The notes beneath the pieces were generated by a model, which saw only the letters and a list, made by a program, of their open reading frames with translations, was not told where the DNA came from and ran no database searches. Below, in pieces: positions 762 to 19,178 of a stretch of 22,859 bases of DNA (positions are counted from its first letter, which is position 1; the number at the start of each line of letters is the position of its first letter). Source of the DNA: Pseudobdellovibrionaceae bacterium. GTDB taxonomy: Bacteria > Bdellovibrionota > Bdellovibrionia > Bdellovibrionales > Bdellovibrionaceae. A program made the position numbers and the translations under genes. The DNA lies in contig JBIKLL010000040.1 in the NCBI GenBank assembly GCA_044359815.1, positions 1 through 22,859 of the forward strand. The letters are read 5' to 3'.

Positions 762-1718
762 ATGACTAACACTCCGACCGTAGATTTTATTAAACTCAGC
801 TTTTGGCCCTGTTTTTTGGGACTCATTTTATCAGGTTGTGCCTTACTGGAACCCAAACAAGAGGTTAAAAAAACAATCAAAGATGTACCGGCCACGGCCC
901 GCAAAGAAGATGCATCTCCCAGACAGCGTCTGGTGATTTTACCTTTTTTGGATGACAATCGTGATCGTCCGCAAGGCATGAGGGATCAATCCAGGGATGA
1001 GTTTATTCATCTGCTAAATAAAACAAAAGACGTGATTGTGATCGACAGTAAGGACATCAAGCTTGATCTGAAATCCCATGTGAATTCCAACAACGAATAC
1101 AGCATGGTGGCCATTGCCAAAGAAGCTGCCAGACTGGGAGCCAGTGCTGTGCTGGAAGGTAAAGTTATTGATATTCAGATTAAAAAATCTGCTGATGAAG
1201 TCGGTGTTTTCAGAACCATGAAAACCAAATTTGAATGCAAAGTCAGGGTCAGAATTTTTGCATCCAGAACTGCCCGTGAACTGTATAATGTGACAAAAAC
1301 CGTAACCGTTGAGGAATCAAACGTGCGCGTAGCTGAAAACGTAGACACCGATAAATTTCTGAAAGCCAATCCAGTTATTATTGCTAATTTGCTGACCGAG
1401 AGCTTTATAGATTTTAATCCCGCCATATTGGATACGATGAGTAAAATGAATTGGGAAGGCCGTATTGCCGTGATTAACGGTGATAGGGTTTATTTAAATG
1501 TGGGCAGAATTTCTGGAGTTAATGTCGGAGATATTTTAAAAGTCACAGAAGACGGAGATGAAATTTATGACCCGCAAACCGGGGGTTATATTGGTAAAGT
1601 TTCTGGTAGACTGAAAGGCACATTGGAAGTAGTAAGCTACTTCGGTCAAGACGGTGCTGTTGCCATCATTCATTCGGGTGCTGGTTTTAAGGAAAACGAC
1701 AGGGTTGAGCTTTACTGA
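762..1718 (+). CDS. Lipoprotein with a CsgG/FlgT-like alpha/beta domain and an FlgT C-terminal-like domain
   Basis: GAGG RBS before ATG 762. Lipobox LILSGC. RLVILPFLD and GASAVLEGKV segments are typical of CsgG/FlgT-M folds. C-terminal GRIAVINGDRVYLNVGRISGVNVGD...IYDPQTG is typical of FlgT_C. Confidence 0.7.
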   Translation: MTNTPTVDFIKLSFWPCFLGLILSGCALLEPKQEVKKTIKDVPATARKEDASPRQRLVILPFLDDNRDRPQGMRDQSRDEFIHLLNKTKDVIVIDSKDIKLDLKSHVNSNNEYSMVAIAKEAARLGASAVLEGKVIDIQIKKSADEVGVFRTMKTKFECKVRVRIFASRTARELYNVTKTVTVEESNVRVAENVDTDKFLKANPVIIANLLTESFIDFNPAILDTMSKMNWEGRIAVINGDRVYLNVGRISGVNVGDILKVTEDGDEIYDPQTGGYIGKVSGRLKGTLEVVSYFGQDGAVAIIHSGAGFKENDRVELY

Positions 1719-1738
1719 TGCTGCTTTGGAGCTTGTAA

Positions 1739-2386
1739 ATGCTAGAAAACTTAAAAGTTCAGGAGCCCTATCATTTTCTGCCTCCTACATTGCCTGAATG
1801 GATAGGTTTAAAAAAATATACTGACGTTTACAATTTGCAGATTTCGACGGCCAATCAAATCAGAAACACAGATAAAATTGCATTTATTGGCTGTGAACAC
1901 CCAACAGTAGTTACCCTGGGAAAAAGAGGAAGCTCAGCTGATATACTGAATCCATCGGTTGAATTTGTTGAAACTGATAGGGGAGGTTTAGCAACCCTGC
2001 ATAGCCCAGGTCAGCTGGTTGTTTATCCGGTGATTGATTTAAAACAAAATAATCTTACTGTGCGCGAATACGTCAATTTATTGCTGTACACGACCCAATG
2101 TTTTTTGGATGAGCACAAGATTAAAACATTTAGAAAATGCGAAACCGGAATTTTTACTGATTTTGGTAAAATTGGTTTTGTGGGCATAAGAGTCAATGAT
2201 CATGTTGCTTATCACGGAGTCTCTATAAATGTTCAAAACGATTTGAATCTGTTTAGACTGATTAGGCCCTGCGGTATGCAGGAAGCCCACATGGATTCGA
2301 TGTCGCAGGTAACGGGTAAAAAGTTTGAGCTGCAGGATCTGTATTTGAAATGGGTTAGAACCTTTGTTATGTTAAAGCATCTTTAG
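1739..2386 (+). CDS. lipB: Octanoyltransferase (lipoyl(octanoyl) transferase) LipB
   Basis: Motifs EHPTVVTLGKRG, TDRGGLATLHSPGQLVVYPVIDL, KIGFVGIRV, HGVSINV and the catalytic PCG. Confidence 0.93.
   Translation: MLENLKVQEPYHFLPPTLPEWIGLKKYTDVYNLQISTANQIRNTDKIAFIGCEHPTVVTLGKRGSSADILNPSVEFVETDRGGLATLHSPGQLVVYPVIDLKQNNLTVREYVNLLLYTTQCFLDEHKIKTFRKCETGIFTDFGKIGFVGIRVNDHVAYHGVSINVQNDLNLFRLIRPCGMQEAHMDSMSQVTGKKFELQDLYLKWVRTFVMLKHL
2345..2373 (+). promoter_or_regulatory. Candidate sigma70-type promoter for tRNA-Val, embedded in the 3' end of lipB
   Basis: TTGAAA(2345-2350)-17 bp-TATGTT(2368-2373), ending 17 nt before the tRNA. Only 4 nt separate the lipB stop from the tRNA. Confidence 0.5.
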
Positions 2387-2390
2387 CGAT

Positions 2391-2466
2391 GATCCCTTGG
2401 CGCAGTTGGTAGCGCGTTTCCTTGACATGGAAAAGGTCAGTGGTTCAAGTCCACTAGGGATCACCA
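2391..2466 (+). tRNA. tRNA-Val (anticodon GAC)
   Basis: Full cloverleaf: acceptor GATCCCT/AGGGATC, D-stem GCGC/GCGC, anticodon stem TTTCC/GGAAA with loop TT-GAC-AT, T-arm AGTGG-TTCAAGT-CCACT, discriminator A and encoded CCA. Confidence 0.97.
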
Positions 2467-2551
2467 GTTTTTTAGTTGAATCAACCCCTGAATAAATCTA
2501 AAAGTAGAGTCTAGCAAAAGATCTTAAAAAATTTAAAGCAGAGGGGGCTTT

Positions 2552-3256
2552 ATGAAATTAATCGCAACTTTACTGTCAGTGATTTTATTGTTTTCACAAA
2601 TGGGTTTTGCAGATGATGCTTTGCGAATCAAGGCACTGAAAGATCAAATTATAACCATGGCCAAGGATTTTGAAGGGCAGGGGGATGCTGATTTTTCAAA
2701 ACAAAAAGCCTTGGATGTTTTGGTTGAAGAATTAGTTCTTTTAGCACCGCAGAAACCTGTGAAGGACAGAATCAGCGTTATCGCTGGGGTTTGGCGACAA
2801 GTGTGGGGCAAATACGACTACCGCAATGAAGACCGAGGCATAGATCCTGAATTAGGTATTGAAGAAATTTATCAAGTCGTAAATGAAAAAGGTTATTACT
2901 ACAACGTATCCTATTTGTATAAAGACGGTGACAGAAACCAAAAACGAATTGGCTTGTTGCGAGGTAAGTTTAAATTAGACAAGCAAGATTCGAATTCTTT
3001 AAAAGTAAAGTTCACCGACTACCCCGGTGCCAGTAAAAAATCAGATAATGTTCCATTGTGGGCATTAGCTGAAATGGCAGAGAATAAAACACTTCCAAAC
3101 AGAATCACTATTGTGTCTTCTTGGATTGTGCGATGGTTTTTTGGTGGCGGAACTTTGCGTGAAGCCTACACTGACAAAGATTTGCGCATCGTTTACGGAG
3201 CCAGCGGCGGAGTCAAAGAAAACGAAACCATTTATGTGATGACAAGGGTTCAATAA
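2552..3256 (+). CDS. Secreted PAP/fibrillin-like (lipocalin-like fold) protein
   Basis: RBS GAGGGGG. Sec signal peptide (…MGFA-DD). The pattern LKDQII...LVEELVLLAP...IAGVWRQVW...IYQVV...GTLREAYTDKDLRI resembles fibrillin GxW and TYLDxDLRI motifs. Confidence 0.6.
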   Translation: MKLIATLLSVILLFSQMGFADDALRIKALKDQIITMAKDFEGQGDADFSKQKALDVLVEELVLLAPQKPVKDRISVIAGVWRQVWGKYDYRNEDRGIDPELGIEEIYQVVNEKGYYYNVSYLYKDGDRNQKRIGLLRGKFKLDKQDSNSLKVKFTDYPGASKKSDNVPLWALAEMAENKTLPNRITIVSSWIVRWFFGGGTLREAYTDKDLRIVYGASGGVKENETIYVMTRVQ

Positions 3257-3293
3257 CCCTTTAGGTTGGGCCTCAAAATTAAAGGAGGCCTCA

Positions 3294-3647
3294 ATGCCTT
3301 ATGAAATTTATAATTTTATTCACATCCTGGGTTTAATTTTGGTTGTATATAGTTTCGGTATCGCATTTTTAAGATCAACGGGACAGGATAAGCGCAAATG
3401 GCCCATGATGATTAATGGCATTGGGTTGGCTTTGATTTTATTAGGTGGGTTTGGCATGGCTGCTCGATTGGGCTACACCACAGGGTTTCCGACCTGGGTT
3501 TTATTTAAAATTGGTTTTTGGGTAGTTTTAGGTTTTATCCCTGTGATTTTACGCAAATTTAGCGCTCCAGCCTATGTTTCGGCACTGGCTCAGATCGGAT
3601 TAGTGCTGGTGGCCGCAGGTTTCGGGATTTTTAAACCAATGAGCTAA
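3294..3647 (+). CDS. Small four-TM membrane protein (SirB2-like)
   Basis: Strong RBS AAGGAGG. Four hydrophobic helices, N-terminal Y..IH and PxWxxxK motifs. Confidence 0.65.
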   Translation: MPYEIYNFIHILGLILVVYSFGIAFLRSTGQDKRKWPMMINGIGLALILLGGFGMAARLGYTTGFPTWVLFKIGFWVVLGFIPVILRKFSAPAYVSALAQIGLVLVAAGFGIFKPMS

Positions 3648-3691
3648 GCTCGGGCAAAGCTGATAATAGATATTTCAGCTATTAAAAAGTC

Positions 3692-3718
3692 CATAGCGCC
3701 CCATCACAAAAACCGATA
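3692..3718 (+). promoter_or_regulatory. Candidate sigma28 (FliA)-type promoter
   Basis: CATAG-N16-CCGATA, ending 10 nt before ATG 3729. Good -10 element, weak -35. Confidence 0.35.
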
Positions 3719-3728
3719 GATCAAAGCC

Positions 3729-4772
3729 ATGGCAAATTCTGTGGTTATATTTTTGATTCAAGTCATTTTTCTTGTGGGACCTTCGCAATCTGTCGCCATC
3801 AATGCACAGGCTCAATCGCAATCTAAAAATCAAACAATCTCGGAATCAGATCAGGAGCTAGAGTCCCTGACTGTCACTGAATTGCTTAAAAAAATTCAAG
3901 GTTCTGATCTTAAAAACGTCCAACGGTTGTTAAAAATTGTCGAAAAATCCGAATATTTTAAAAAGGCCCATGTTATTCAATTGATATTTTTAGTACACGC
4001 TCAATCAGATTATCAGACAGAATTGTTATTGATAGATTTTATCGCTAAAAAAATATCTGAACTGTATTACAACACCAAGGCTGACCAAAATGAACTTTTG
4101 ATTATCAAAAATTTGGTAAAAACCCTGAATGCCAGACATCCCTACCGACAAACTCTGTTTGATATTTTGCATTCTAAAAATTTATTAACCCCACAGGACA
4201 TTGAGCTGGTGGCTTTGTTTTTACCACCACTTAAGCATAAAAGCTCTCGGCAGAAATTGGATATATTGTACCCACTATTGAGCGCAGGATTTCAGCACGC
4301 AAAACCTGAAACTCAAGAACTGATTTTACAAAAAATCTCAGCCAGTAATTTGGCTTCATTTTCCAAATCCATATTGCTGTTTAATGTCGGGGACAGAAAT
4401 ATTTATCACATTAAAAATCTGATCAGGCTTTTTGCGGATGAACATTCTAAATATTTAAAGTCACTGGATCCGAAAAGTGATTTTGTCTATAAGCCCCATC
4501 CTTCAGTGAACACTGGGGATTACGATGAGGTATTAAGCGAAATTAATAAATTATTGTTTACGCAGACAGTGGCGGGCAGCCGTTTAAGGTCTTACGTGGC
4601 ACAAATCAGAAAGCATTTTAAACATGGCTTAACCAATGGCTCTGATTCAGAAGGCATCGATGATAAATACCGGCTGGAATTTATTAACCTGTTTGATAAT
4701 GGAAATTTTAGATTGTATTCGCCCAATGTTGAAAACAAGTGCGATTATGTCTTTGCCAAAAGATTTTTTTGA
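3729..4772 (+). CDS. Secreted hypothetical protein, predicted alpha-helical
   Basis: 347-aa ORF with a hydrophobic N-terminal signal and Leu-rich helical composition. Its only Cys lies in the C-terminal KCDYVF. Confidence 0.75.
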   Translation: MANSVVIFLIQVIFLVGPSQSVAINAQAQSQSKNQTISESDQELESLTVTELLKKIQGSDLKNVQRLLKIVEKSEYFKKAHVIQLIFLVHAQSDYQTELLLIDFIAKKISELYYNTKADQNELLIIKNLVKTLNARHPYRQTLFDILHSKNLLTPQDIELVALFLPPLKHKSSRQKLDILYPLLSAGFQHAKPETQELILQKISASNLASFSKSILLFNVGDRNIYHIKNLIRLFADEHSKYLKSLDPKSDFVYKPHPSVNTGDYDEVLSEINKLLFTQTVAGSRLRSYVAQIRKHFKHGLTNGSDSEGIDDKYRLEFINLFDNGNFRLYSPNVENKCDYVFAKRFF

Positions 4773-4811
4773 TCACTCAATACCTGCGACGCCCTTAGCT
4801 TAAGAGCTTAT

Positions 4812-4952
4812 TTATTGAAAATAGCTGTAGGTTAAAGACAGATTGAGTTCTGAATGACTGCAGTCGCCAGGTAATCCGAACCCAAAGTCATCGTTGTCAC
4901 CAGTCGTAATCAGTGTCACCGTATGCGGGGCCGCTACAGATTTGCCGGCGAG
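4812..4952 (-). pseudogene. C-terminal remnant of a protein gene (no start codon)
   Basis: The minus frame reads ...LAGKSVAAPHTVTLITTGDNDDFGFGLPGDCSHSELNLSLTYSYFQ-stop (TAA at 4814-4812), a protein-like beta-strand C-terminus. There is no ATG before the next upstream in-frame stop. Not in the ORF track. Confidence 0.5.
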
Positions 4953-5438
4953 ACGATAACAGCTTGGAATCCAATCACCAGTGGCGGAGCAATCACAACG
5001 ATGGCAAATTCTGGAGCTAATTTAATTGTGGGTGGAACCTTCACTTCTTTAGGTGGAGTTCCCAGAAATTATTTAGCAATGTATGACACCAATAATCCTA
5101 TACCCACTTTGATGCCATGGAATCCAAATCCCAATGGATTTGTCAGCGACGTTCGACTTGCAAATGGAAATTTATATATTTCTGGCAATTACAGCTCCAT
5201 CGGTGGGGCTCTCAGGCCAGGCTTGGCTCATCTGGAGCTTGCCACAGGTAATGCCACTTCATGGACACCTCCTGCAGTCGTTGCCGCCAGACCGCCAGCA
5301 GTCTCTAATTTTAATGGATCAATGTTTTACCATTATGGAAAACAGCTTTATATTTATGGCAGGCATTATGTAGGCGATGATGGATTCACACGCGACCTGA
5401 TTGGCATCAATACACAAACGGGTGGATTAAGGCCTTAG
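4923..5438 (+). pseudogene. C-terminal fragment of a beta-propeller repeat surface protein
   Basis: Repeating blades (WNP...NLIVGGTFTSLGGVPRNYLA; WNPNPNG...NLYISGNYSSIGGALRPGLA; WTP) begin mid-repeat at ~4953. There is no signal peptide or RBS, and the first ~10 codons are the antisense of the neighbouring fragment. Confidence 0.65.
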
Positions 5439-5483
5439 GGAATCTGCGTTAGTTTAACTCAAATAATTTTCCTTTTTCGTGTG

Positions 5484-6446
5484 TCATTTTATTTTGTCTG
5501 TAAAATCCTTTTGATCGCTAGGTCGCCCCCTTAATCGCGGGCCGCTATCAGAAAGCCATCTTTTGACTTCAGTTTTTAAAACTCGGCGATGTCCGCCTGG
5601 GGTGATCATGGATTTCAATTCGCCACGGTCAATAGCCCTTCTGATGGTGTCTTTGTGACATTTCATTCTTAAGGCGATTTCCTCGGGACTGTAGGATTCC
5701 TCAGCATCCCAGTCGGGTGGAAAGTGGGCAGGGGACGGGGCTGGGATAGGCAGCCCCTGTTGCAGCATTTTACCCCTTTGATCCTCGGCCTTTTTCCAAG
5801 CTTTCAATATCTGTTCGCCAATCATGGCAAAGTATTTTCTCTTTTGTGAATCCTTTAATCTTTTGATGGACGGCAAGCTGTCGGTTTCGACTGCAAAATC
5901 AGGAATATAAATTTTGAGTGATTCAAACTCAGACCTTAAAACCAAAGGATATTCCTGAATACTGGTCAACCTATCCGCCGTTGATGTTTTACCAGAACGA
6001 ACTTTGCGGATCAGTTTTTTAAGGGTCTTTTGTTTTTTTAACTCAAGCCGTTCAAGCGCCTTTTTCTGATTTAACTTATTCTTTTTACTCTTATTAAACC
6101 CTTTTTTGAGAATTCTTGATTTTGTTTTAAACGATTTCTTGTCTCTGCGACTGGTTTTAAACTTTGCTTTTCTGGCAATGTGTTTTCGGTTTAAATTCTT
6201 ACGTTTTTTAAGGTTTTTCCCTACTGTTTTTGATCTTTTTTTGCTGTTTTTAAGGGAGGATTTAGTCTTTTTCCTGAAGACGACGGGTTTTTTAAATCGA
6301 CTGTTTTTACCCTTATTATTTCGGCCGCCTTTTTTTGCTGTTTTACCCTTTTTTGGCTTTCCGGCAAACTTAGGTTTTTTGGAACCACTGGCCCTCTTGT
6401 TTTTCAAACCATTTTTCCGCTTCTTCAAACCTTTTTTAGCAGCCAT
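5484..6446 (-). CDS. Excisionase/BldC-type (HTH_17, MerR-like) DNA-binding protein with a long Lys/Arg-rich N-terminal tail and C-terminal AT-hook-like motif
   Basis: GGGGG RBS before ATG 6446 (MAAKKG). The first ~153 aa are ~45% K+R. HTH: YSPEEIALRMKCHKDTIRRAIDRGELKSMITPGGHRRVLKTEVKRWL (~5553-5693), followed by PRLRGRPS. Confidence 0.85.
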   Translation of the reverse strand: MAAKKGLKKRKNGLKNKRASGSKKPKFAGKPKKGKTAKKGGRNNKGKNSRFKKPVVFRKKTKSSLKNSKKRSKTVGKNLKKRKNLNRKHIARKAKFKTSRRDKKSFKTKSRILKKGFNKSKKNKLNQKKALERLELKKQKTLKKLIRKVRSGKTSTADRLTSIQEYPLVLRSEFESLKIYIPDFAVETDSLPSIKRLKDSQKRKYFAMIGEQILKAWKKAEDQRGKMLQQGLPIPAPSPAHFPPDWDAEESYSPEEIALRMKCHKDTIRRAIDRGELKSMITPGGHRRVLKTEVKRWLSDSGPRLRGRPSDQKDFTDKIK

Positions 6447-6556
6447 TTTTACCCCCAAAATTGAAATTCAAAACCCTTTATAACCCTAAAAAACGGGTCA
6501 AATCATTGATAAAGCCATACAACAAAACCAAAGAAAAAAATCTATCAGATAAAATA

Positions 6557-6592
6557 GTCGCAAATGTCGCATTAAAAATAAAGCTTTATTTT
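6557..6592. promoter_or_regulatory. Candidate protein-binding sites in the divergent promoter region: GTCGCA direct repeat and an 18-bp perfect palindrome
   Basis: GTCGCA at 6557-6562 and 6566-6571 (9-bp period). AAAATAAAGCTTTATTTT at 6575-6592. Confidence 0.45.
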
Positions 6593-6612
6593 GTTGCCTG
6601 AGCTATTATTTA

Positions 6613-6640
6613 ATGTATTATAAGATTAGTTATCGTACAT
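6613..6640. other. dif/Xer-like tyrosine-recombinase core site (11-6-11)
   Basis: ATGTATTATAA-GATTAG-TTATCGTACAT. The arms are inverted at 9/11 positions (12/15 when extended), with the inner ATAA-N6-TTAT geometry of Xer dif sites, 106 bp upstream of the recombinase ATG. Confidence 0.7.
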
Positions 6641-6746
6641 AAAAGATTTGTGGGTTTTTACTTTTCAATTTTCAGTCTGAAAACCCAGGGATTTTGATGG
6701 TTTTTACGAATTTTTAATGAGTGTTTTTTAAAGGCAGGGGGATTAT

Positions 6747-7706
6747 ATGAGTCAAAAGCGAGGTCTAGATTCCAAATCAACCACTGAAAACAATCACCCA
6801 TTGCAAATCCAATCAAAAACCCAAGGTTTTTTAACTGATTTAACCCACCTTTCAGACAAGGAGCTTAAGCTTTTGACTTCTTGGTTGTTTTCTAGACCCA
6901 GAAACACGCAAAAGTCCTACAAAACTGAAATCGCCAAGTTTTTGCAGATGTATCCTGGCCTGCAGCTAAAAAACGTTGAAACCTTTCACGTAGTCAAATT
7001 TTTAAACGATCTTAAAAAATCAGGACTTAAAGAAGTCTCTATCAATCACGCCAGGGATGCCCTGTCGTCGATGTTTAATTACTTTGTGAAAACTCATTTT
7101 ATAGTTTCAAACCCCGTAAGCCCCATTGAGCGAAATAAAATCCCTGATCAAACAGCTCACCGAATACAAACCATGGATGAAACCTTGCTGATGATCAAAA
7201 AAGAACCTGATGAAAGAAACAGAATCATTATCAGGACTATTTTTGAAACCGGAGTCAGACGGGAAGAACTGTGCAAGCTTTGTTTTAACAATATCTATAA
7301 ATACGGAAGAAACTATTTTCTGACGGTCACAGGCAAAGGTTCAAAAACCAGGACCATTATGATTTCTAAAAGTTTATTTTTAAGCCTGGAATCGCTGATT
7401 AAAAATCCTGACGGCACATTGGCTCCTCGAAAGACCGAGGTTTTTAGATCCTACAGATTTCCCTATAAGGCTCTGACGGGGACTGATATTTACCGCATTA
7501 TCATCAAAGCCAGCCTTCGCTGTGGCAAAAAACGATCTCCGCACGAGGGGCGCCATGGACACGCCACCTTGGCCCTTGAAAAGGGTGCAGACCTTCGTGA
7601 AATCCAGTTTACCTTGGGACATGAATCTATAACAACCACGACGAAATACACTCACGTCAGACCAACACAGTCGACGACAAGATTTATAAGATTTAAAAAA
7701 ATATGA
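6747..7706 (+). CDS. Tyrosine recombinase/integrase, XerC/XerD-like
   Basis: GGGGG RBS. SAM-like N-terminal domain (NTQKSY...SINHARDALSSMFNY). Complete catalytic set: R (TGVRREE), K (GKGSKTR), HxxR (SPHEGRH), LGH and Y (TTKYTH). Confidence 0.93.
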   Translation: MSQKRGLDSKSTTENNHPLQIQSKTQGFLTDLTHLSDKELKLLTSWLFSRPRNTQKSYKTEIAKFLQMYPGLQLKNVETFHVVKFLNDLKKSGLKEVSINHARDALSSMFNYFVKTHFIVSNPVSPIERNKIPDQTAHRIQTMDETLLMIKKEPDERNRIIIRTIFETGVRREELCKLCFNNIYKYGRNYFLTVTGKGSKTRTIMISKSLFLSLESLIKNPDGTLAPRKTEVFRSYRFPYKALTGTDIYRIIIKASLRCGKKRSPHEGRHGHATLALEKGADLREIQFTLGHESITTTTKYTHVRPTQSTTRFIRFKKI

Positions 7707-7710
7707 TTGC

Positions 7711-8394
7711 TTAGGGATAGCGGGGGTGACCCGTAAGATGTGCTTGTTCTAAACTGTTGTAAATGAGTTCTGAGTAATACTTGAGTTTTAAAGATGAAAC
7801 ATACTCAACATTTGAATCGTCTTTGATCGTCACCAAAAACAAATTGTCAGACTGATGTTGTAATTCGATTATTATGCTAAATCCAGTCACCCATTGACCA
7901 ACAGATTTTGGACCTAGCCTGATTTGATAAAGTGTCTGATTTTGTGTCTGTTCTGTGTAAATCAGATTACTGTTGGAACGCACATGGTTTTTTATAAGCT
8001 GTAGTTTTGCATTAAGTTGGGCTGATTTAATTATTCCCGAATCTATAAGTCCTTGTATGCCTGTGTCTGATTGAAAATTAAAGGCCATTAAATAACTGGG
8101 CACAGAGTTGTAATAAAAATTCAGATTAAACATATTGCTAAACTGCGAATCAACACCGCAATTTAGGTCAATCACGCTGGCCCTGATAACAAAGTTTCTG
8201 TACCTGGTCATAATGTTTGCAGATTGCTTCATGTACTCGTCAATAAAATAGGTGGCGGGTATTTCTTCGGAGCTGGCTTGATCTATCTGGGAGCTTTGTT
8301 GTGCCGGTCCTCGCTCATCGCCCAATATCGAATTACACCCTAAATTAAAAATCGATAAAAGTATGATTAAAAATATAAATATCATGTTCCTCAT
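7711..8394 (-). CDS. Hypothetical lipoprotein
   Basis: The likely start is ATG 8394 (AAGG RBS), giving MRNMIFIFLIILLSIFNLGC with lipobox NLGC. The track's longer start at 8550 lacks support. Confidence 0.7.
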   Translation of the reverse strand: MRNMIFIFLIILLSIFNLGCNSILGDERGPAQQSSQIDQASSEEIPATYFIDEYMKQSANIMTRYRNFVIRASVIDLNCGVDSQFSNMFNLNFYYNSVPSYLMAFNFQSDTGIQGLIDSGIIKSAQLNAKLQLIKNHVRSNSNLIYTEQTQNQTLYQIRLGPKSVGQWVTGFSIIIELQHQSDNLFLVTIKDDSNVEYVSSLKLKYYSELIYNSLEQAHLTGHPRYP

Positions 8395-8591
8395 AAATAC
8401 CTTTCTCGATTCAATACGCCTCAATTTAAGTATTTCATTTCTGGACAGGTGGGACAATATTAACCTGGCTAGTGACTCATACTGATCCGCTTTAAAGTTT
8501 AGCTGCAAAACAAGGGTGTTAATCTTTTGGACAGACTGGCATTTTCCCAATTAAAAAAATGCCCAAATCCCTGCCAAATCACGACAGCTAC

Positions 8592-8620
8592 TTGAAATCA
8601 ATCTGCCTGGAATCTATAAG
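8592..8620 (+). promoter_or_regulatory. Candidate sigma70 promoter giving a leaderless mRNA
   Basis: TTGAAA-17 bp-TATAAG, ending 6 nt before ATG 8627. No clear SD. Confidence 0.45.
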
Positions 8621-8626
8621 TCTGAG

Positions 8627-9655
8627 ATGTTCAAATTCAGTGTTTTTACAATAATGCTTTTAATCAGTGTTGTGGTTCAGCAGTCGCAGGCCAAGGGACT
8701 TTGTGAAAACGCTTTTCGATTGGCTGGATTTGAAGATGTTCTGACCAGAGCCCAGGCCAAGCTTCCTGCAAATCTTAAAAACTTGAAAACACTTGATAAC
8801 CTGACGGATGCTCAGATTGAAAGAGCTGTTCGCTTTGAACAACCTGTTGGTATTGAAGTTTCAAAACACTTTGGATTGTACCCTTTGGCGATTAAATTGA
8901 TTCAATCCAATTTGCACGTGCTGGACACTGTCAGGCGCATAGATTTTGATAACATTATTGATACCAGAATTTATAAAATAACCAATCATCCTCTGTATCC
9001 CAGATTTAGGTTACTAATAAAATATTCCAGATTTGGGGACGTCAAAGTTTTTGAAAAGGATTTTCGAAGCAACGGTTATCTGGCCTTTTTGCATAACTCG
9101 TACAGAGATCATCAAAAACATGAAGCTCTGAGAATGTTTTTTACCTACAGCCCTGAGTTTTCTTTCTTGGCATCCAGAAAACAGGCTCGGGTTAAGGTTT
9201 ACGAACAAACTGATTTTGTTTTGTCAACCTTACCTGAAACCCTTGAGCTTTCGCGGGTAATGACAAAAACAGAAGCTGATTTGTGGCAATTGGGAAGCTC
9301 GACAGAAATAAAAACCTATTACAATAATGGTGGGACCCATTTTGCGTTGAAAGAATATCTGTTCCCAAACAGAGAACCTTCGCTGTTATATTACATTCAA
9401 ATCCCAAAAGATGTGTTTTATGATCTAAGGGCTCGCGACCTTCTGGTTGTAAACACCTATCCTTCTGTAGTTGATGATTTGGTGTGGGGGATGGTTGCGC
9501 AGAATCAGACGTCCTTTGGTTTAGAAATCGAAATCGTTGTTTTAAAATCAGAAGGCCGCAAGATCCTGGAGCCTTATATGAAAAGCATGGTGCCGGGGCC
9601 AGCTTCCCCCACCGTCGAAGACCGAAAAAGAATGCTTAACCCTGATCTTTTTTAG
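8627..9655 (+). CDS. Secreted hypothetical protein
   Basis: 342-aa ORF with a Sec signal (…SQA-K). The mature N-terminus carries LCENAF, its only Cys. Confidence 0.78.
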   Translation: MFKFSVFTIMLLISVVVQQSQAKGLCENAFRLAGFEDVLTRAQAKLPANLKNLKTLDNLTDAQIERAVRFEQPVGIEVSKHFGLYPLAIKLIQSNLHVLDTVRRIDFDNIIDTRIYKITNHPLYPRFRLLIKYSRFGDVKVFEKDFRSNGYLAFLHNSYRDHQKHEALRMFFTYSPEFSFLASRKQARVKVYEQTDFVLSTLPETLELSRVMTKTEADLWQLGSSTEIKTYYNNGGTHFALKEYLFPNREPSLLYYIQIPKDVFYDLRARDLLVVNTYPSVVDDLVWGMVAQNQTSFGLEIEIVVLKSEGRKILEPYMKSMVPGPASPTVEDRKRMLNPDLF

Positions 9656-9678
9656 TTTTTCAAAGCAAAACTAAAAAA
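9648..9678. terminator. A/T-rich hairpin overlapping the stop codon of 8627..9655 (possible terminator)
   Basis: TTTTTTAGTTTT (9648-9659) / AAAACTAAAAAA (9667-9678). Confidence 0.3.
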
Positions 9679-9682
9679 AGCT

Positions 9683-9967
9683 CCCATACTGATCTTTTAA
9701 ATATTTTAAAAGTATCTATATTCGAAAAAAGAGTTTCATTAGTACCACAAATTCCAACGTAAATTTTATTTTTTAATGACTTGTGCAGCGAGCGCGCTCT
9801 GCGTATCTAAGTGTTGCGGCATCGACAGATGAAGCAACACGGGAGACGAAGTGCGGCCGTTAGCGAAAGTCATTAAAGAGTAAAATTTATGTTGGAATTT
9901 GTGGTACTAATTCTATTTGCAGAAAGGAAAATAGTTTCTTTTAAAATATTTAAAGGATCAGTATGGG
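9683..9967 (+). repeat. Structured palindromic element, copy 1: conserved core 9784-9866 inside nested long inverted repeats
   Basis: Outer IR 9683-9712/9938-9967 (29/30). Inner IR 9739-9782/9867-9910 (41/44). All 4 mismatches are G-T/U pairs on the + strand. Core TGCAGCGAGCG...GCGGCCGTTAGCGA is shared with 14987-15094. Confidence 0.85.
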
Positions 9968-11904
9968 CATTCGTACTGAAAGCGCGCGACGGCGGCAGCA
10001 GGAGCTGAAGCAAAGGTCAGGATATTGCCCGAGACTGTGAATGCAGGCAGCGATGGTCCGCTGACCAATGTAGCAGTGACATCGGGGGACCCATTGTTGT
10101 CCTTATCCACAGGTGTGCACTGCAGTTGGATTTGCTTAACTGAGTTTTTGATCTGATGGCCGATGTCATCCAAGATTGTTGAATAATCATTGCTTTTAAT
10201 CTGTCCATCAGTGGCGCCAGTCAGTGTTTGCAACGACTGCAAAGCCCCAAGGATGCAAGGGACATTGTAACTGCAGACATTGTCAGCGGCTGGATCTTTG
10301 ATTGTATGGAAAAACATTTTTTTATTGATCCAGTTTTTGTTGATCAAACCTTGCAGGTAACTGCCCCTGCTTCTGATAGTGGTTCCGCCTTCGGCCTCAT
10401 CAGTGATTGAAATAATATGCAAACTGGCGTTGGCTCTGACAAAGGCTTTATTGTGTTGATTGATTGAATCACTCAGCAACGCCCTTTCCAGCATCCGCGC
10501 TGTGGATTTGATGGACTGCTGGGCCCAGTGACCCTTTTCACCCAACATCAGTGATTGAGCCAGGTTTGTGTTTAAATTTAAAGTGTCCATTGAATACCAG
10601 TACTTTGTGCTGTCTTGATGATTTGCCAACAGTAAGCCGTCTTGAACCTTTTGTTTAAATAATAAATCCTTGTTCGCAGGTTCAGGGCTGTTTGTGCCAT
10701 CATAGTTCATATCCGAAACACAGGTGTTGGCGTAAATATTTTGATTTTGGCCGTTACACAAACTGCCAGTCGTTGTGAATCCAATTCGGTAATCTATACC
10801 TGTAAGATGTGTGGTCAAATTGCCTATGGCTAAGCCCAGGGCCTGATGTTCGGAACTCATCGATGAAGTGTTAGCCACCACAAATAAAATTTCTGTCTGA
10901 TTCAAGGGTTGTTCTTGGATGATTTTTTTACCCTCATTGACCACTGAAAAATTAAAATGCCTTTCAGTTTGATTAGACAGTGTATCAGTCATCCGCACTT
11001 TGAAAGTGTGCGACCCCACAGACAATCCAGAATAAATTTTGGTTTCAGGATTGGCGCAGGGTTGATAGGGTGATCCATCCATTGTGCATTCAACCGATGA
11101 CAGCACCACTGAATTTCCCACGGCGTGAAAGGCAAAAACCACATCCTGCAGATTTCCCACGGCGGGTTCGGGACTGGCCGAAAACAAAACCTCTGGTCCA
11201 GATGAAATTGGCACCAAGGCATTTTGAATCCACGAAATCACCAGGGGTGGGGATTTATTACCAGCATTATCAAAAGCTTCTATCACCAAGGTTTTATTGC
11301 CATTTGTAATTGCGGTCAGATTTAATGGCGAACTGCATTCGGACCTGGCCTGTCCTGTAAAAACACATTCGTATTTTAAAATTCCTGATCCTGCATCGGC
11401 ACCTGAAAACTCCACTGTGGCCGTGCTGCCAGCGATTGTTCCGCTGGGGCCAGTTACCAGACTCAGAGTCGGCTTAATATTGTCGTGCAAATAAGTCACC
11501 GATTCACATCCAGATTCTGAATGTGAGTTTTTAAATTTTACGTAGACCGTGTTGGATTGATTCAGGTTTAAAATATTCCAGGACTTTTGAAAGCTAAAGT
11601 CTTCCCAGGCACCACCTGTTGAACAATCTGAAGTATTTGTGACATAGATTTGATTGGCGTGATTGGCAGTCAGATCCAGCAGAACGCTGGTTTTATTGGT
11701 AAACGAAGCTGCGGTCATTAAACCAGTGGGTGATTGAGATTCTGTAAAGGTTTGAACACTGGCTAAGGTCGTTGAAGTAGTGCTTGAAGAGGTTGATGCA
11801 GCCTCTAGCTGCTGGGGCTTTTCGCAATTGTTAAAGGCCAGCATCAGGATAATTCCGCATAAGGACAGAGCAAAATATCTGAAGACCCCTTTTTTCAGTG
11901 CCAT
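9958..11904 (-). CDS. Secreted/lipoprotein surface protein with Ig-like domains and a vWA-like domain
   Basis: Signal ending AFNNC, Ser/Thr-rich linker, Ig-like repeats (VYVKFKN, DNIKPTL, AFDNAGN, GLSVGSHTFKV), vWA-like ILFVVANTSSM...DYRIGFTTT...LHIISITDEAE, and a C-terminal LQCTP...YEC domain. Confidence 0.8.
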   Translation of the reverse strand: MALKKGVFRYFALSLCGIILMLAFNNCEKPQQLEAASTSSSTTSTTLASVQTFTESQSPTGLMTAASFTNKTSVLLDLTANHANQIYVTNTSDCSTGGAWEDFSFQKSWNILNLNQSNTVYVKFKNSHSESGCESVTYLHDNIKPTLSLVTGPSGTIAGSTATVEFSGADAGSGILKYECVFTGQARSECSSPLNLTAITNGNKTLVIEAFDNAGNKSPPLVISWIQNALVPISSGPEVLFSASPEPAVGNLQDVVFAFHAVGNSVVLSSVECTMDGSPYQPCANPETKIYSGLSVGSHTFKVRMTDTLSNQTERHFNFSVVNEGKKIIQEQPLNQTEILFVVANTSSMSSEHQALGLAIGNLTTHLTGIDYRIGFTTTGSLCNGQNQNIYANTCVSDMNYDGTNSPEPANKDLLFKQKVQDGLLLANHQDSTKYWYSMDTLNLNTNLAQSLMLGEKGHWAQQSIKSTARMLERALLSDSINQHNKAFVRANASLHIISITDEAEGGTTIRSRGSYLQGLINKNWINKKMFFHTIKDPAADNVCSYNVPCILGALQSLQTLTGATDGQIKSNDYSTILDDIGHQIKNSVKQIQLQCTPVDKDNNGSPDVTATLVSGPSLPAFTVSGNILTFASAPAAAVARFQYECPY

Positions 11905-17539: not shown

Positions 17540-18220
17540 ATGGAAAAAACAAAATTCAACGATAAAACTACAGATAAATTAAAATTTCAGTTAATCAACA
17601 ACCCTGATTTTGAAAAAACAATTTCAAACACTGACACGATTCATGGCGAATTATTCGAAATCGAAAAACAAATCATCGAACAAAAAATTCCTATTGATAT
17701 TGGTGTTGCCAATGATGAACACCTAAAACAACGCGAAAACGTCAGCTTTGTTGAATTCAGACGGGGATCCAGTTCACGAAAACCTGGTTACATTCTGGCT
17801 GCTTGGTCGTTTTTTAGCGCTTTATGTGACACTTTAATTAATTTCGGTATGGCTTGTTTATTTATGGTGGCCTCAAGCTTAGTCATGCAAAGTCAATCTG
17901 ATCAGGTCTTTGAGTTTTTTCAAGATTCATTCCCCATCATTTTTATTTTGTTGTTCATGGCATTTCAAAGCCTGTACATGCTGGTGACCCGTGCCTTTAT
18001 CGGCGCAAGCTTGGGTGAATGGGCCAGCGGCATCCGCCTGGGCAGTGTCAAAGACCGGCTGGACAGTTTTTACGTGGCCCGAGTGTTTGGCAGATCTTTA
18101 ATGGTGTTTTGTACAGGAATAATAACTTTACCAGTACTGTCTTTGCTGATTGGCAAAGATGCCGCTGGATTTCTATCGGGGATCTATTTGGTAAAAATAG
18201 ATTATAAAAATCATGTCTAA
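17540..18220 (+). CDS. RDD family membrane protein
   Basis: SALCDTLI helix, [18 protein letters not shown] and RVFGR, the typical RDD pattern. Start ATG 17540 is preferred because TAGACT (-10-like) lies 7 nt upstream. The track start is 17477. Confidence 0.75.
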
Positions 18221-18251
18221 ATCTGTTTTTGCATACAAGGAAGTGTTTTCA

Positions 18252-19178
18252 ATGAATTCTAAAAAATTGGTTTTTATAGCGATGATGGTTTTAGCCACGG
18301 CTTGCACAAAATCCGCAGATTCCACACCGGCGGCTGTGGATCCCAATATTTCAAAACTGGCCGACAGGCTTTTTTGGATTTCTGGCGAAAATGTTCCTGA
18401 CAGCACTATCGGAAAGCCCGAAGATTTTTATTTTCACACAGCCACAGCTGATATTTATAAAAAAGACGAAAACGACAATTGGAATTTGCTTTTAAACATC
18501 AAAGGACCTGCAGGCATTGGCCCCCAGGGACCACAGGGATTAATTGGTCCGCAAGGTCCTCAGGGTGAAATGGGTTTAACAGGAGCTACGGGACCTCAAG
18601 GTTTGACTGGTGCTACTGGCTCCTCTGGCCCGATGGGACCGCAGGGATTAATTGGACCCCAAGGCACACAAGGCCCGCAAGGATTAACGGGTCCGCAGGG
18701 GATTCAGGGCGTGGCGGGCAGTGACGGTGCCGATGGCTTAAATGCTAATTCGGTTGTGATGATTCATCAACAAACTCAAACAGCTGCCAGATACACTGCC
18801 AGTAAAAATTTAAATCTGTCAGTTCCTTTGACTGTGGATGCATTGATTGGCAGCGGCGCTCAAGGCGTTACCATCATGATTTATTCCACCGGGATTACCT
18901 GCAGCTACAGGGGAACAGCGTCGATTTCAAATCCCAGCACTGGCAGCCGGGACTACGAAATCGGAAAAGCTTATAAATTGCAAAAATGCGTTTCAAACGC
19001 AGGACTGGTTGATGATGATTTTAGAAATCAAACCGCAGCATTTACTGGCAGGCCGGCCATCGATGTCAGCGCGGGTATGGCTTTAACTGCTGGGCAATTT
19101 GTTGAATTAAAAATCCTGTCTGGCGGAGCCAGGGTTAATCCGATCAGAGCTCAATCGCATTCTGTCGTTTTGAATTAG
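18252..19178 (+). CDS. Collagen-like lipoprotein
   Basis: AAGGAAG RBS, then [18 protein letters not shown] lipobox, a WISG..P...G...DFYF.T.T..IYKK...W...NIKG module, 25 Gly-X-Y triplets and a C-terminal globular domain. Confidence 0.85.
18519..18743 (+). repeat. Collagen triple-helix coding repeat, (Gly-X-Y)25
   Basis: Uninterrupted GPQ GPQ GLI ... GAD GLN with diverged synonymous codons. Confidence 0.9.

Follow-up and report, generated by a model that had tools for sequence, protein, structure and literature searches.

The gene at positions 5484–6446 (minus strand) of the window, by which we mean the whole 22,859-nt stretch of contig JBIKLL010000040.1 from a Pseudobdellovibrionaceae bacterium (assembly GCA_044359815.1), encodes a 320-residue protein, P0001. 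With a little better than even confidence, we explain the product as a sequence-specific DNA-binding protein of the BldC/Xis type, a recombinase-associated regulator or architectural factor that has gained a non-specific polyanion-binding extension. Specifically, a core in which a Pro-rich linker joins a HicB-like N-domain to an HTH_17 winged helix, followed by a short basic C-terminal arm, would bind head-to-tail to a hexamer repeat with 9-bp spacing (6557–6571) upstream of its own gene. Bound there, it would regulate the divergent promoters, its own included, serve the recombinase encoded next door as an architectural or directionality factor, or both.

Domain organization of the protein

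The gene runs from ATG 6446 to a TGA stop codon at 5484–5486, and its 320 codons specify a product with a predicted isoelectric point of 11.0 and a net charge of about +73 at pH 7. By eye, a GGGGG run that resembles a Shine-Dalgarno sequence (6452–6456, minus strand) lies 5 nt upstream of the ATG.

Residues 252–299 (5550–5693) form a winged helix of the HTH_17/excisionase type with a BldC-like fold. The region scores above the cut-offs of Pfam HTH_17 (PF12728; E 8.8e-10, 39.1 bits, cut-off 27) and of TIGR01764 'excise' (E 2.9e-11, 43.6 bits, cut-off 28.8), while the BldC subfamily profile NF033787 (HTH_BldC) gives 28.4 bits and does not reach its cut-off of 77. The core was modelled with AlphaFold2 (AF2) on residues 155–320, using an alignment of 71 family sequences, with a mean predicted local distance difference test score (pLDDT) of 88.8; the winged helix has pLDDT >90 throughout. 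Its top structural match is BldC (Z 8.7, root-mean-square deviation 1.3, 52 residues aligned), which Foldseek also retrieves (E 3e-4, 35–38% identity) and which the family profile matches with E 1.4e-12. Pukovnik Xis (Z 7.8) and RdfS (Z 7.1) align, like BldC, to residues 95–150 of the core model. The protein also matches phrog_66 ('excisionase and transcriptional regulator'), and it is encoded by the only HTH_17 gene in its genome. With two profiles above cut-off and BldC as the best structural match, the Xis/BldC-type helix-turn-helix (HTH) proposed by an earlier sequence-only reading is borne out.

The winged helix is preceded by a conserved α/β domain (residues 160–230; 5757–5969), modelled as β-β-β-long helix, in which short strands lead into a 30-residue helix. 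The predicted fold resembles HicB/UPF0150 proteins, seven entries of which were matched (Z 6.1 for 2dsy, 5.4 for 6u0i, 5.2 for 6g1c, 4.8 for 5yrz and 6g1n, and 4.6 for 3kwr and 4p78). These values (Z 4.6–6.1) are middling, with LptE on a par at 6.7, and a Pfam scan returned no match for the domain, HicB included. A Pro-rich linker, LPIPAPSPAHFPPDWDAEE (residues 231–251; 5694–5756), modelled at lower confidence, joins the two domains. The sequence-only reading had placed this linker directly after the polybasic tail; the linker is present, but the folded domain of residues ~160–230 stands between the two. Neither this domain nor the divergent recombinase gene at 6747–7706 figured in that reading.

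Upstream of the core, residues 1–111 (6114–6446) are polybasic and predicted to be disordered (pLDDT ~50 in the full-length model), and residues 112–150 (5997–6113) are predicted to form a long basic helix (pLDDT 89–94 over residues 121–140). The last turns of this helix are amphipathic (hydrophobic moment, muH, 0.55–0.60), and it contains a (L/F/Y)(I/L)RK motif that is common to the tails of the relatives P0003 and P0008.

A conserved direct repeat upstream of the family genes

The core profile was searched against 1.84 billion representative sequences and returned 6506 matches at E≤1e-3, of which 182 pass E≤1e-10 and 16 pass E≤1e-30. Matches that span the whole core are mostly 130–200 aa long, and the ~165-aa core defines an unnamed family found mainly in Bdellovibrionota-like genomes. 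The only relatives that come with names are a Bdellovibrionales metagenome-assembled genome (L006) and plasmid pBdHM1 of Bdellovibrio sp. HM001 (L013). The gene is accessory: of 40 other genomes searched with P0001, 4 have it. A defence-system scan with PADLOC matched the HTH only (mad1).

A 300-bp AT-rich intergenic region (6447–6746) separates the gene from the divergent recombinase gene. It contains a hexamer direct repeat, TGCGACATTTGCGAC, at 6557–6571 on the minus strand, 111–125 nt upstream of the ATG and with AT-rich flanks, which is a candidate operator. The pattern is TGCGAC-N3-TGCGAC, corresponding to a spacing of 9 bp, and is expected 0.01 times by chance. The same region has a 12-nt palindrome, ATAAAGCTTTAT, and a 10-nt inverted pair, AAAATTGAAA/TTTCAATTTT, with one arm close to the start of each gene.

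Conservation of the repeat was scored as exact 6-mer pairs at offsets 6–15 in the 200 nt upstream of the gene at nine family loci. An exact pair at offset 9 is present at six of the nine, and every other offset gives 0–1; none of 2000 sets of shuffled upstream regions had an offset-9 repeat at more than three loci. The TGCGAC pair recurs at the same spacing in L002 and L006, and L005 has a 5-of-6 version. Other hexamers occupy the same spacing elsewhere (L009 and L010 have TGAGCG, and the plasmid has TGGAAC); thus, the hexamer differs between subclades. The family protein is likely the binder of the repeat, by analogy with BldC, which binds direct repeats as head-to-tail multimers (PMC5859096).

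In the 2.95-Mb genome the exact window pattern occurs twice. The other copy (L012 2902–2916, G000:C121) lies inside a purL-like open reading frame (ORF; 1711–3927), where it codes for VANVAI, and shares 16 identical bases with the window site, AGTCGCAAATGTCGCA on the plus strand. It may be a chance occurrence or a secondary site.

The protein ends in a low-confidence arm (residues 300–320; 5487–5549) with the sequence PRLRGRPS, whose RGRP core occupies residues 306–309 (5520–5531). An (R/K)GRP motif also follows the HTH in the closest relatives P0002, P0003, P0006 and P0007; it is found in 3 of 60 scorable family representatives, plus P0002 and P0003, and is thus restricted to the nearest relatives. 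AT-hooks have basic residues on both sides of the core, and here PRL-R lies upstream and SDQ, which is not basic, downstream. Searches with Pfam AT_hook (PF02178) found nothing in the whole protein at E≤1 or in the 21-aa C-terminus at E≤10; models of such short motifs are insensitive. The RGRP core noted in the sequence-only reading is thus present and recurs in the closest relatives, and these scans lend no support to an AT-hook proper. The arm may reach the AT-rich flanks of the repeat.

Pairing with an accessory tyrosine recombinase

The gene on the other side of the intergenic region (6747–7706, plus strand) encodes a 319-aa Xer-like tyrosine recombinase (PF00589). It falls well short of the cut-offs of the XerC, XerD and XerA models, and its catalytic residues R171, K200, H266, R269, H292 and Y301 are invariant among seven relatives. 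Of 25 other genomes of the family, only 7 encode a close relative (E≤1e-29), which makes the recombinase accessory. Its own genome, which is 91% complete, has two PF00589 genes, the one in the window and one Xer-like gene on C96 (L008 6232–7134), so that at most one canonical Xer gene is seen in this assembly.

At six of the nine loci (the window, L002, L004, L005, L009 and L010) a divergent tyrosine recombinase gene lies within 1.5 kb of the family gene. As for the remaining three, L006 stops at a contig end, the recombinase of L003 is on another contig, and the plasmid locus L013 has none among the four neighbours scanned. The link is therefore not obligatory. A modelled complex of the recombinase with the core scored 0.00, which weighs neither for nor against binding.

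Some relatives have extra ORFs between or beside the two partners (L010 911–1249; L009 2121–3306 and 4074–4940; L003 3–974). In L009, two ORFs separate the family gene from the recombinase gene. One extra ORF encodes 112 aa and looks by eye like a HicB-type antitoxin, and an ORF of ~290 aa with a similar N-terminal region adjoins the partner in both G013 and G014.

A charge-conserved polybasic extension in one clade

The N-terminal tail carries a net charge of about +65 over 158 residues. Residues 1–153 contain 54 Lys and 15 Arg, or 69 basic residues, and three acidic ones (one Asp, two Glu), with LKKRKN at residues 7 and 79; in these scripted counts and searches, as in those that place TPGGHRR at residue 282 and RGRP at 5520–5531, the figures of the sequence-only reading were reproduced. 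The tail consists of K (34%), R (9%), S (8%), L (8%), N (8%) and G (7%) and includes six Phe; apart from weak similarities of 26 nt, no family of tandem repeats is seen in it. Its Ala plus Pro content is 8% and its K/(K+R) ratio 0.78, compared with 36% and 1.00 in the H1-like protein of the same genome, which contradicts the earlier likening of the tail to those of H1, Hc1 and HupB.

That H1-like protein (L008 3082–3513; G000:C96:28081–28512) has 143 aa. Its N-terminal half is of the classical Lys-Ala-Pro type with AKKAAKPAKK repeats (K 44%, A 28%), and its C-terminal half is strongly acidic. It is the likelier candidate for a general nucleoid protein in its own genome.

The 159 codons before the core contain no stop, compared with a mean of 7.75 in dinucleotide shuffles, of which 1 in 20,000 was open; stops number 7 and 22 in the two remaining sense frames. 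Apart from the ATG, the frame offers possible starts only at TTG codons 7, 14, 160 and 168. Genome-wide, 4 of 6045 stop-to-stop ORFs of at least 80 aa have a comparable polybasic window; one of them, C96:32823–33485, is an alternative frame of an EEKK-repeat gene and was dropped, leaving three genuine ORFs. P0002, a homologue of the same length and 94% identity, differs at 16 positions in residues 1–158 and at 2 in residues 159–320 (Fisher p = 0.0005), with no indels and a net tail charge of +64 against +65; by BLASTP the tails are 90% and the cores 99% identical. The tail thus evolves ~8-fold faster than the core while its charge is conserved. The tail frame is almost certainly held open by selection and, judging from these sequence comparisons, the tail is very probably translated and very probably kept for its charge rather than its sequence. 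The long ORF starts a short distance downstream of the conserved repeat, like the genes of tail-less relatives, and the position of the repeat suggests that transcription begins upstream of the long ORF.

Contigs from runs X4, X5, X6 and X9 that cover 5300–6900 are essentially identical in the coding region. One X5 contig, which carries the only variants seen, matches through the tail-coding region, has 4 substitutions and 2 indels at 6585–6609, and diverges after 6640; the divergent promoter region thus varies between strains, and the coding region does not. A 20-nt piece from the loose end of this contig gave no meaningful match in the window.

A census of 153 proteins (the queries and the best 150 representatives) found a polybasic tract in four, P0001, P0002, P0003 and P0008. 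In a core tree of 20 rows these form one clade (support 95/84) with nested tail lengths, ~45 aa in P0008, ~116 aa in P0003 and 158 aa in P0001 and P0002; their sisters P0007 and P0004 are tail-less. Because most of the family lacks the tail, the function of the core is independent of it. As for the origin of the tail, a word-based search with residues 1–155 matched only P0002 and a feature search gave no usable match; scans of genome and metagenome contigs for the DNA of P0002, P0003 and P0008 yielded only L006. The best-supported reading is that the extension is a recent, expanding, charge-selected addition. One small freshwater (lake) clade would have gained a fast-evolving polybasic N-terminus and later lengthened it (~45, 116, 158 aa). 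Most likely, the extension would hold the DNA beside the specific site through strong electrostatic contacts that lack sequence specificity, stabilizing, bending or locally coating it.

Alternative explanations

Some of the results weigh against a recombinase-associated regulator with a DNA-binding extension. There is no PF00589 gene among the four neighbours scanned on pBdHM1, no att-like direct repeat of the tRNA-Val end and no flanking repeat in 2300–10000, and no relative in viral-contig and phage collections that would indicate a phage origin. Three of the nine loci lack the exact offset-9 repeat (L005 has five of six positions), and the binder of the repeat is assigned by analogy rather than fixed by evidence here. 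The start at ATG 6446 is read from the sequence. DNA binding by the tail is deduced from its charge, in a composition that would equally suit other polyanions and that differs from Lys-Ala-Pro tails of the H1 type.

The sequence-only reading had proposed a site-targeted nucleoid-compacting or silencing protein, in which the HTH and RGRP would target AT-rich sites and the tail would condense the genome globally, as H1, Hc1 and HupB do. A charge of about +65 over 158 residues, the status of the gene as the sole HTH_17 gene in its genome and one of only three genuine ORFs with comparable polybasic tracts, and the bacterial precedent of an H1-like domain fused to a regulatory domain (DdbA; PMC3643593) fit such a role, which we nevertheless consider rather unlikely. 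Tail-less homologues had been named as an observation that would go against it, and most of the family is tail-less, with 4 of 153 members carrying a tract. In addition, the gene is accessory, patchily distributed (4 of 40 other genomes) and tied to a recombinase, the genome encodes a separate classical Lys-Ala-Pro H1-like protein (L008 3082–3513), the tail composition is not of the H1 type, and two exact copies of the repeat in 2.95 Mb would provide few nucleation sites. A local role in recombination or regulation is better supported, given the HicB-like domain and the recurrent pairing with a recombinase gene, and global compaction is less likely. In a more local version, unlikely in our estimate, the tail would make a regulator that accompanies the recombinase into a factor that coats or condenses DNA from its binding site outwards. 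An array of winged helices would dock on the TGCGAC repeat, the +65 tail would spread over or bridge the flanking AT-rich DNA, and the recombinase locus or a larger domain would be silenced or packaged; the nested tail lengths (~45, 116, 158 aa) would then record ongoing selection for coating capacity. This lineage of predatory bacteria is known for extreme nucleoid compaction.

The tail could instead bind another polyanion, such as anionic membrane lipids, polyphosphate or RNA, and tether the DNA site or the protein to a membrane or granule. Clusters of basic and aromatic residues bind acidic lipids in the manner of MARCKS, and in the tail basic residues alternate with Phe and Leu (RFKKPVVFRKK, KKSFKTKSRILKKGFNK), with six Phe, 16% hydrophobic residues and amphipathic stretches of muH 0.54–0.60. 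RacA, a chromosome anchor with a winged HTH, is among the fold matches, and the H1-like protein AlgP is reported to associate with polyphosphate granules (PMC9239181). We regard this as improbable: residues 1–110 have no confident amphipathic N-terminal helix, and the tail of P0008 has no Phe. Less probable again is that the tail is not translated at all, the product of ~160 aa starting at TTG codon 160 (or 168) and the A-rich stretch serving as a leader. The two TTG codons are there, and the corresponding point is where tail-less homologues start (P0004 with MSSKLFNRLRSIQEYP), but 159 codons stay open in A-rich DNA (1 in 20,000 shuffles open; 7 and 22 stops in the other frames), P0002 has acquired 16 tail substitutions without a frameshift, indel or stop, and polybasic extensions are also found in P0003 and P0008. 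TTG-160 has no properly spaced Shine-Dalgarno sequence, compared with the GGGGG located 5 nt upstream of ATG 6446, and it would put the repeat ~590 nt upstream of the start, compared with 18–167 nt in the relatives. Finally, the protein might be a HicB-type antitoxin whose DNA-binding domain has been swapped for HTH_17, given the resemblance of its N-domain to HicB N-domains (Z 6.1 for 2dsy, 5.4 for 6u0i, 5.2 for 6g1c, 4.8 for 5yrz) and an order of HicB-like domain followed by DNA-binding domain that Foldseek recovers over 124 columns in 6hpb_B (prob 0.82). This is highly improbable, since HicA_toxin (PF07927) was not found in the 91%-complete genome by a search that was positive in 7 of 14 reference genomes as control, no adjacent small co-oriented ORF is seen at the window locus, and the Z scores are middling, with LptE as high (6.7) and no Pfam HicB match.

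Other features of the locus

A tRNA-Val(GAC) gene, the only match of the Rfam scan, lies 4.3 kb away at 2391–2466. The four ORFs after it (window 2391–5438) have no family matches except 4923–5438, which matches a DUF5122 β-propeller below cut-off and phrog_5490 with E 1.5e-17. Synteny of the neighbouring genes lipB and nnr is not kept in relatives; the distance between lipB and the module is 3 kb in G006, where the stretch has no tRNA, and 24 kb in G002, from which nothing firm follows.

On the other side of the recombinase gene, nested inverted repeats at 9683–9967 lie between the convergent ORFs 8627–9655 (plus strand) and 9958–11904 (minus strand). The 45-nt arms (9738–9782 and 9867–9911) are 93% complementary and are enclosed by outer 41-nt arms (9683–9723 and 9927–9967) that are 90% complementary; together they may form a large bidirectional hairpin or mark a site of recombination or inversion. 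ORF 9958–11904 (648 aa) weakly matches a Bdellovibrio MIDAS-family adhesin model and an OmpL47-type domain, and ORF 18213–19178 (321 aa) contains collagen triple-helix repeats.

Comparison with known systems

If a recombinase-associated regulator with an acquired extension is the correct description, the gene belongs to an unstudied family of Bdellovibrionota regulators that combine a HicB-like domain with a BldC/Xis-type winged helix and have a readily testable operator with 9-bp spacing and an accessory Xer-like recombinase as partner. The natural series of tail-less, ~45-, 116- and 158-aa forms could show how a disordered polybasic extension alters a site-specific DNA-binding protein. By itself it opens no long-standing question, as Lys-rich extensions on bacterial DNA-binding proteins are already known. 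Within the literature covered by our search, no HTH_17/excisionase protein with a polybasic tail or a HicB-like domain is described.

BldC of Streptomyces (PDB 6ama, 6amk) is the best structural match to residues 252–299, with 31–38% identity, and the direct repeats that it binds (PMC5859096) find a counterpart in the conserved 9-bp-spaced repeat upstream of the family gene at six of the nine loci. In contrast, BldC is a single domain of 68 residues, whereas the window protein has 320 aa, with a HicB-like domain, an RGRP arm and a polybasic tail of 158 aa, and its genomic context is a recombinase rather than developmental genes. The recombination directionality factors of the MerR-type excisionase group, Pukovnik Xis (4j2n), RdfS (8dgl), GIsul2 Xis (8c3t) and Tn916 Xis (1y6u), share the fold (Z 7.8, 7.1, 6.3 and 5.0), and TIGR01764 above its cut-off and the position beside a tyrosine recombinase gene at six of nine loci point in the same direction. 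Known members, however, have ~55–90 aa and reside in recognizable phages or islands; the protein here is 2–5 times longer, no att sites or element borders were found around it, and the recombinase is Xer-like.

The window protein resembles HicB/UPF0150 proteins (TTHA0281, 2dsy; HicB3, 6u0i and 4p78; the Burkholderia pseudomallei protein, 6g1c and 6g1n; the Streptococcus pneumoniae protein, 5yrz) in the predicted fold of its N-domain, at middling Z scores, and in the order of its domains. The usual DNA-binding domain of HicB is of the ribbon-helix-helix or Xre type; here it is HTH_17, with no HicA in the genome and no match at the level of sequence. The C-terminal arm has an R-G-R-P core 6 residues past the last HTH helix and a candidate site with AT-rich flanks beside the gene, comparable to AT-hooks of the HMGA type and to the GRPR minor-groove arms carried by the DNA-binding domains of Hin-type recombinases. 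It departs from an AT-hook in its S-D-Q downstream flank, in the lack of a Pfam AT_hook match and in the presence of the motif in only 3 of 60 scorable representatives.

Hc1 and mycobacterial HupB also carry Lys-rich H1-like extensions, and tails of the H1, Hc1 and HupB kind are dominated by Lys, Ala and Pro in short repeats. Streptomyces DdbA is a DNA-binding protein with a Lys-rich H1-like extension (PMC3643593), and chlamydial Hc2 is Lys-rich and varies in length through repeat number (PMC2848022). Like them, the window protein has a long, basic, low-complexity extension on a folded nucleic-acid-related domain, and, as in Hc2, the length of the tail varies between close relatives. Unlike their Lys-Ala-Pro repeats, the tail described here is built from K, R, S, N, L and G with 8% Ala plus Pro and is attached to a site-specific winged HTH linked to a recombinase.

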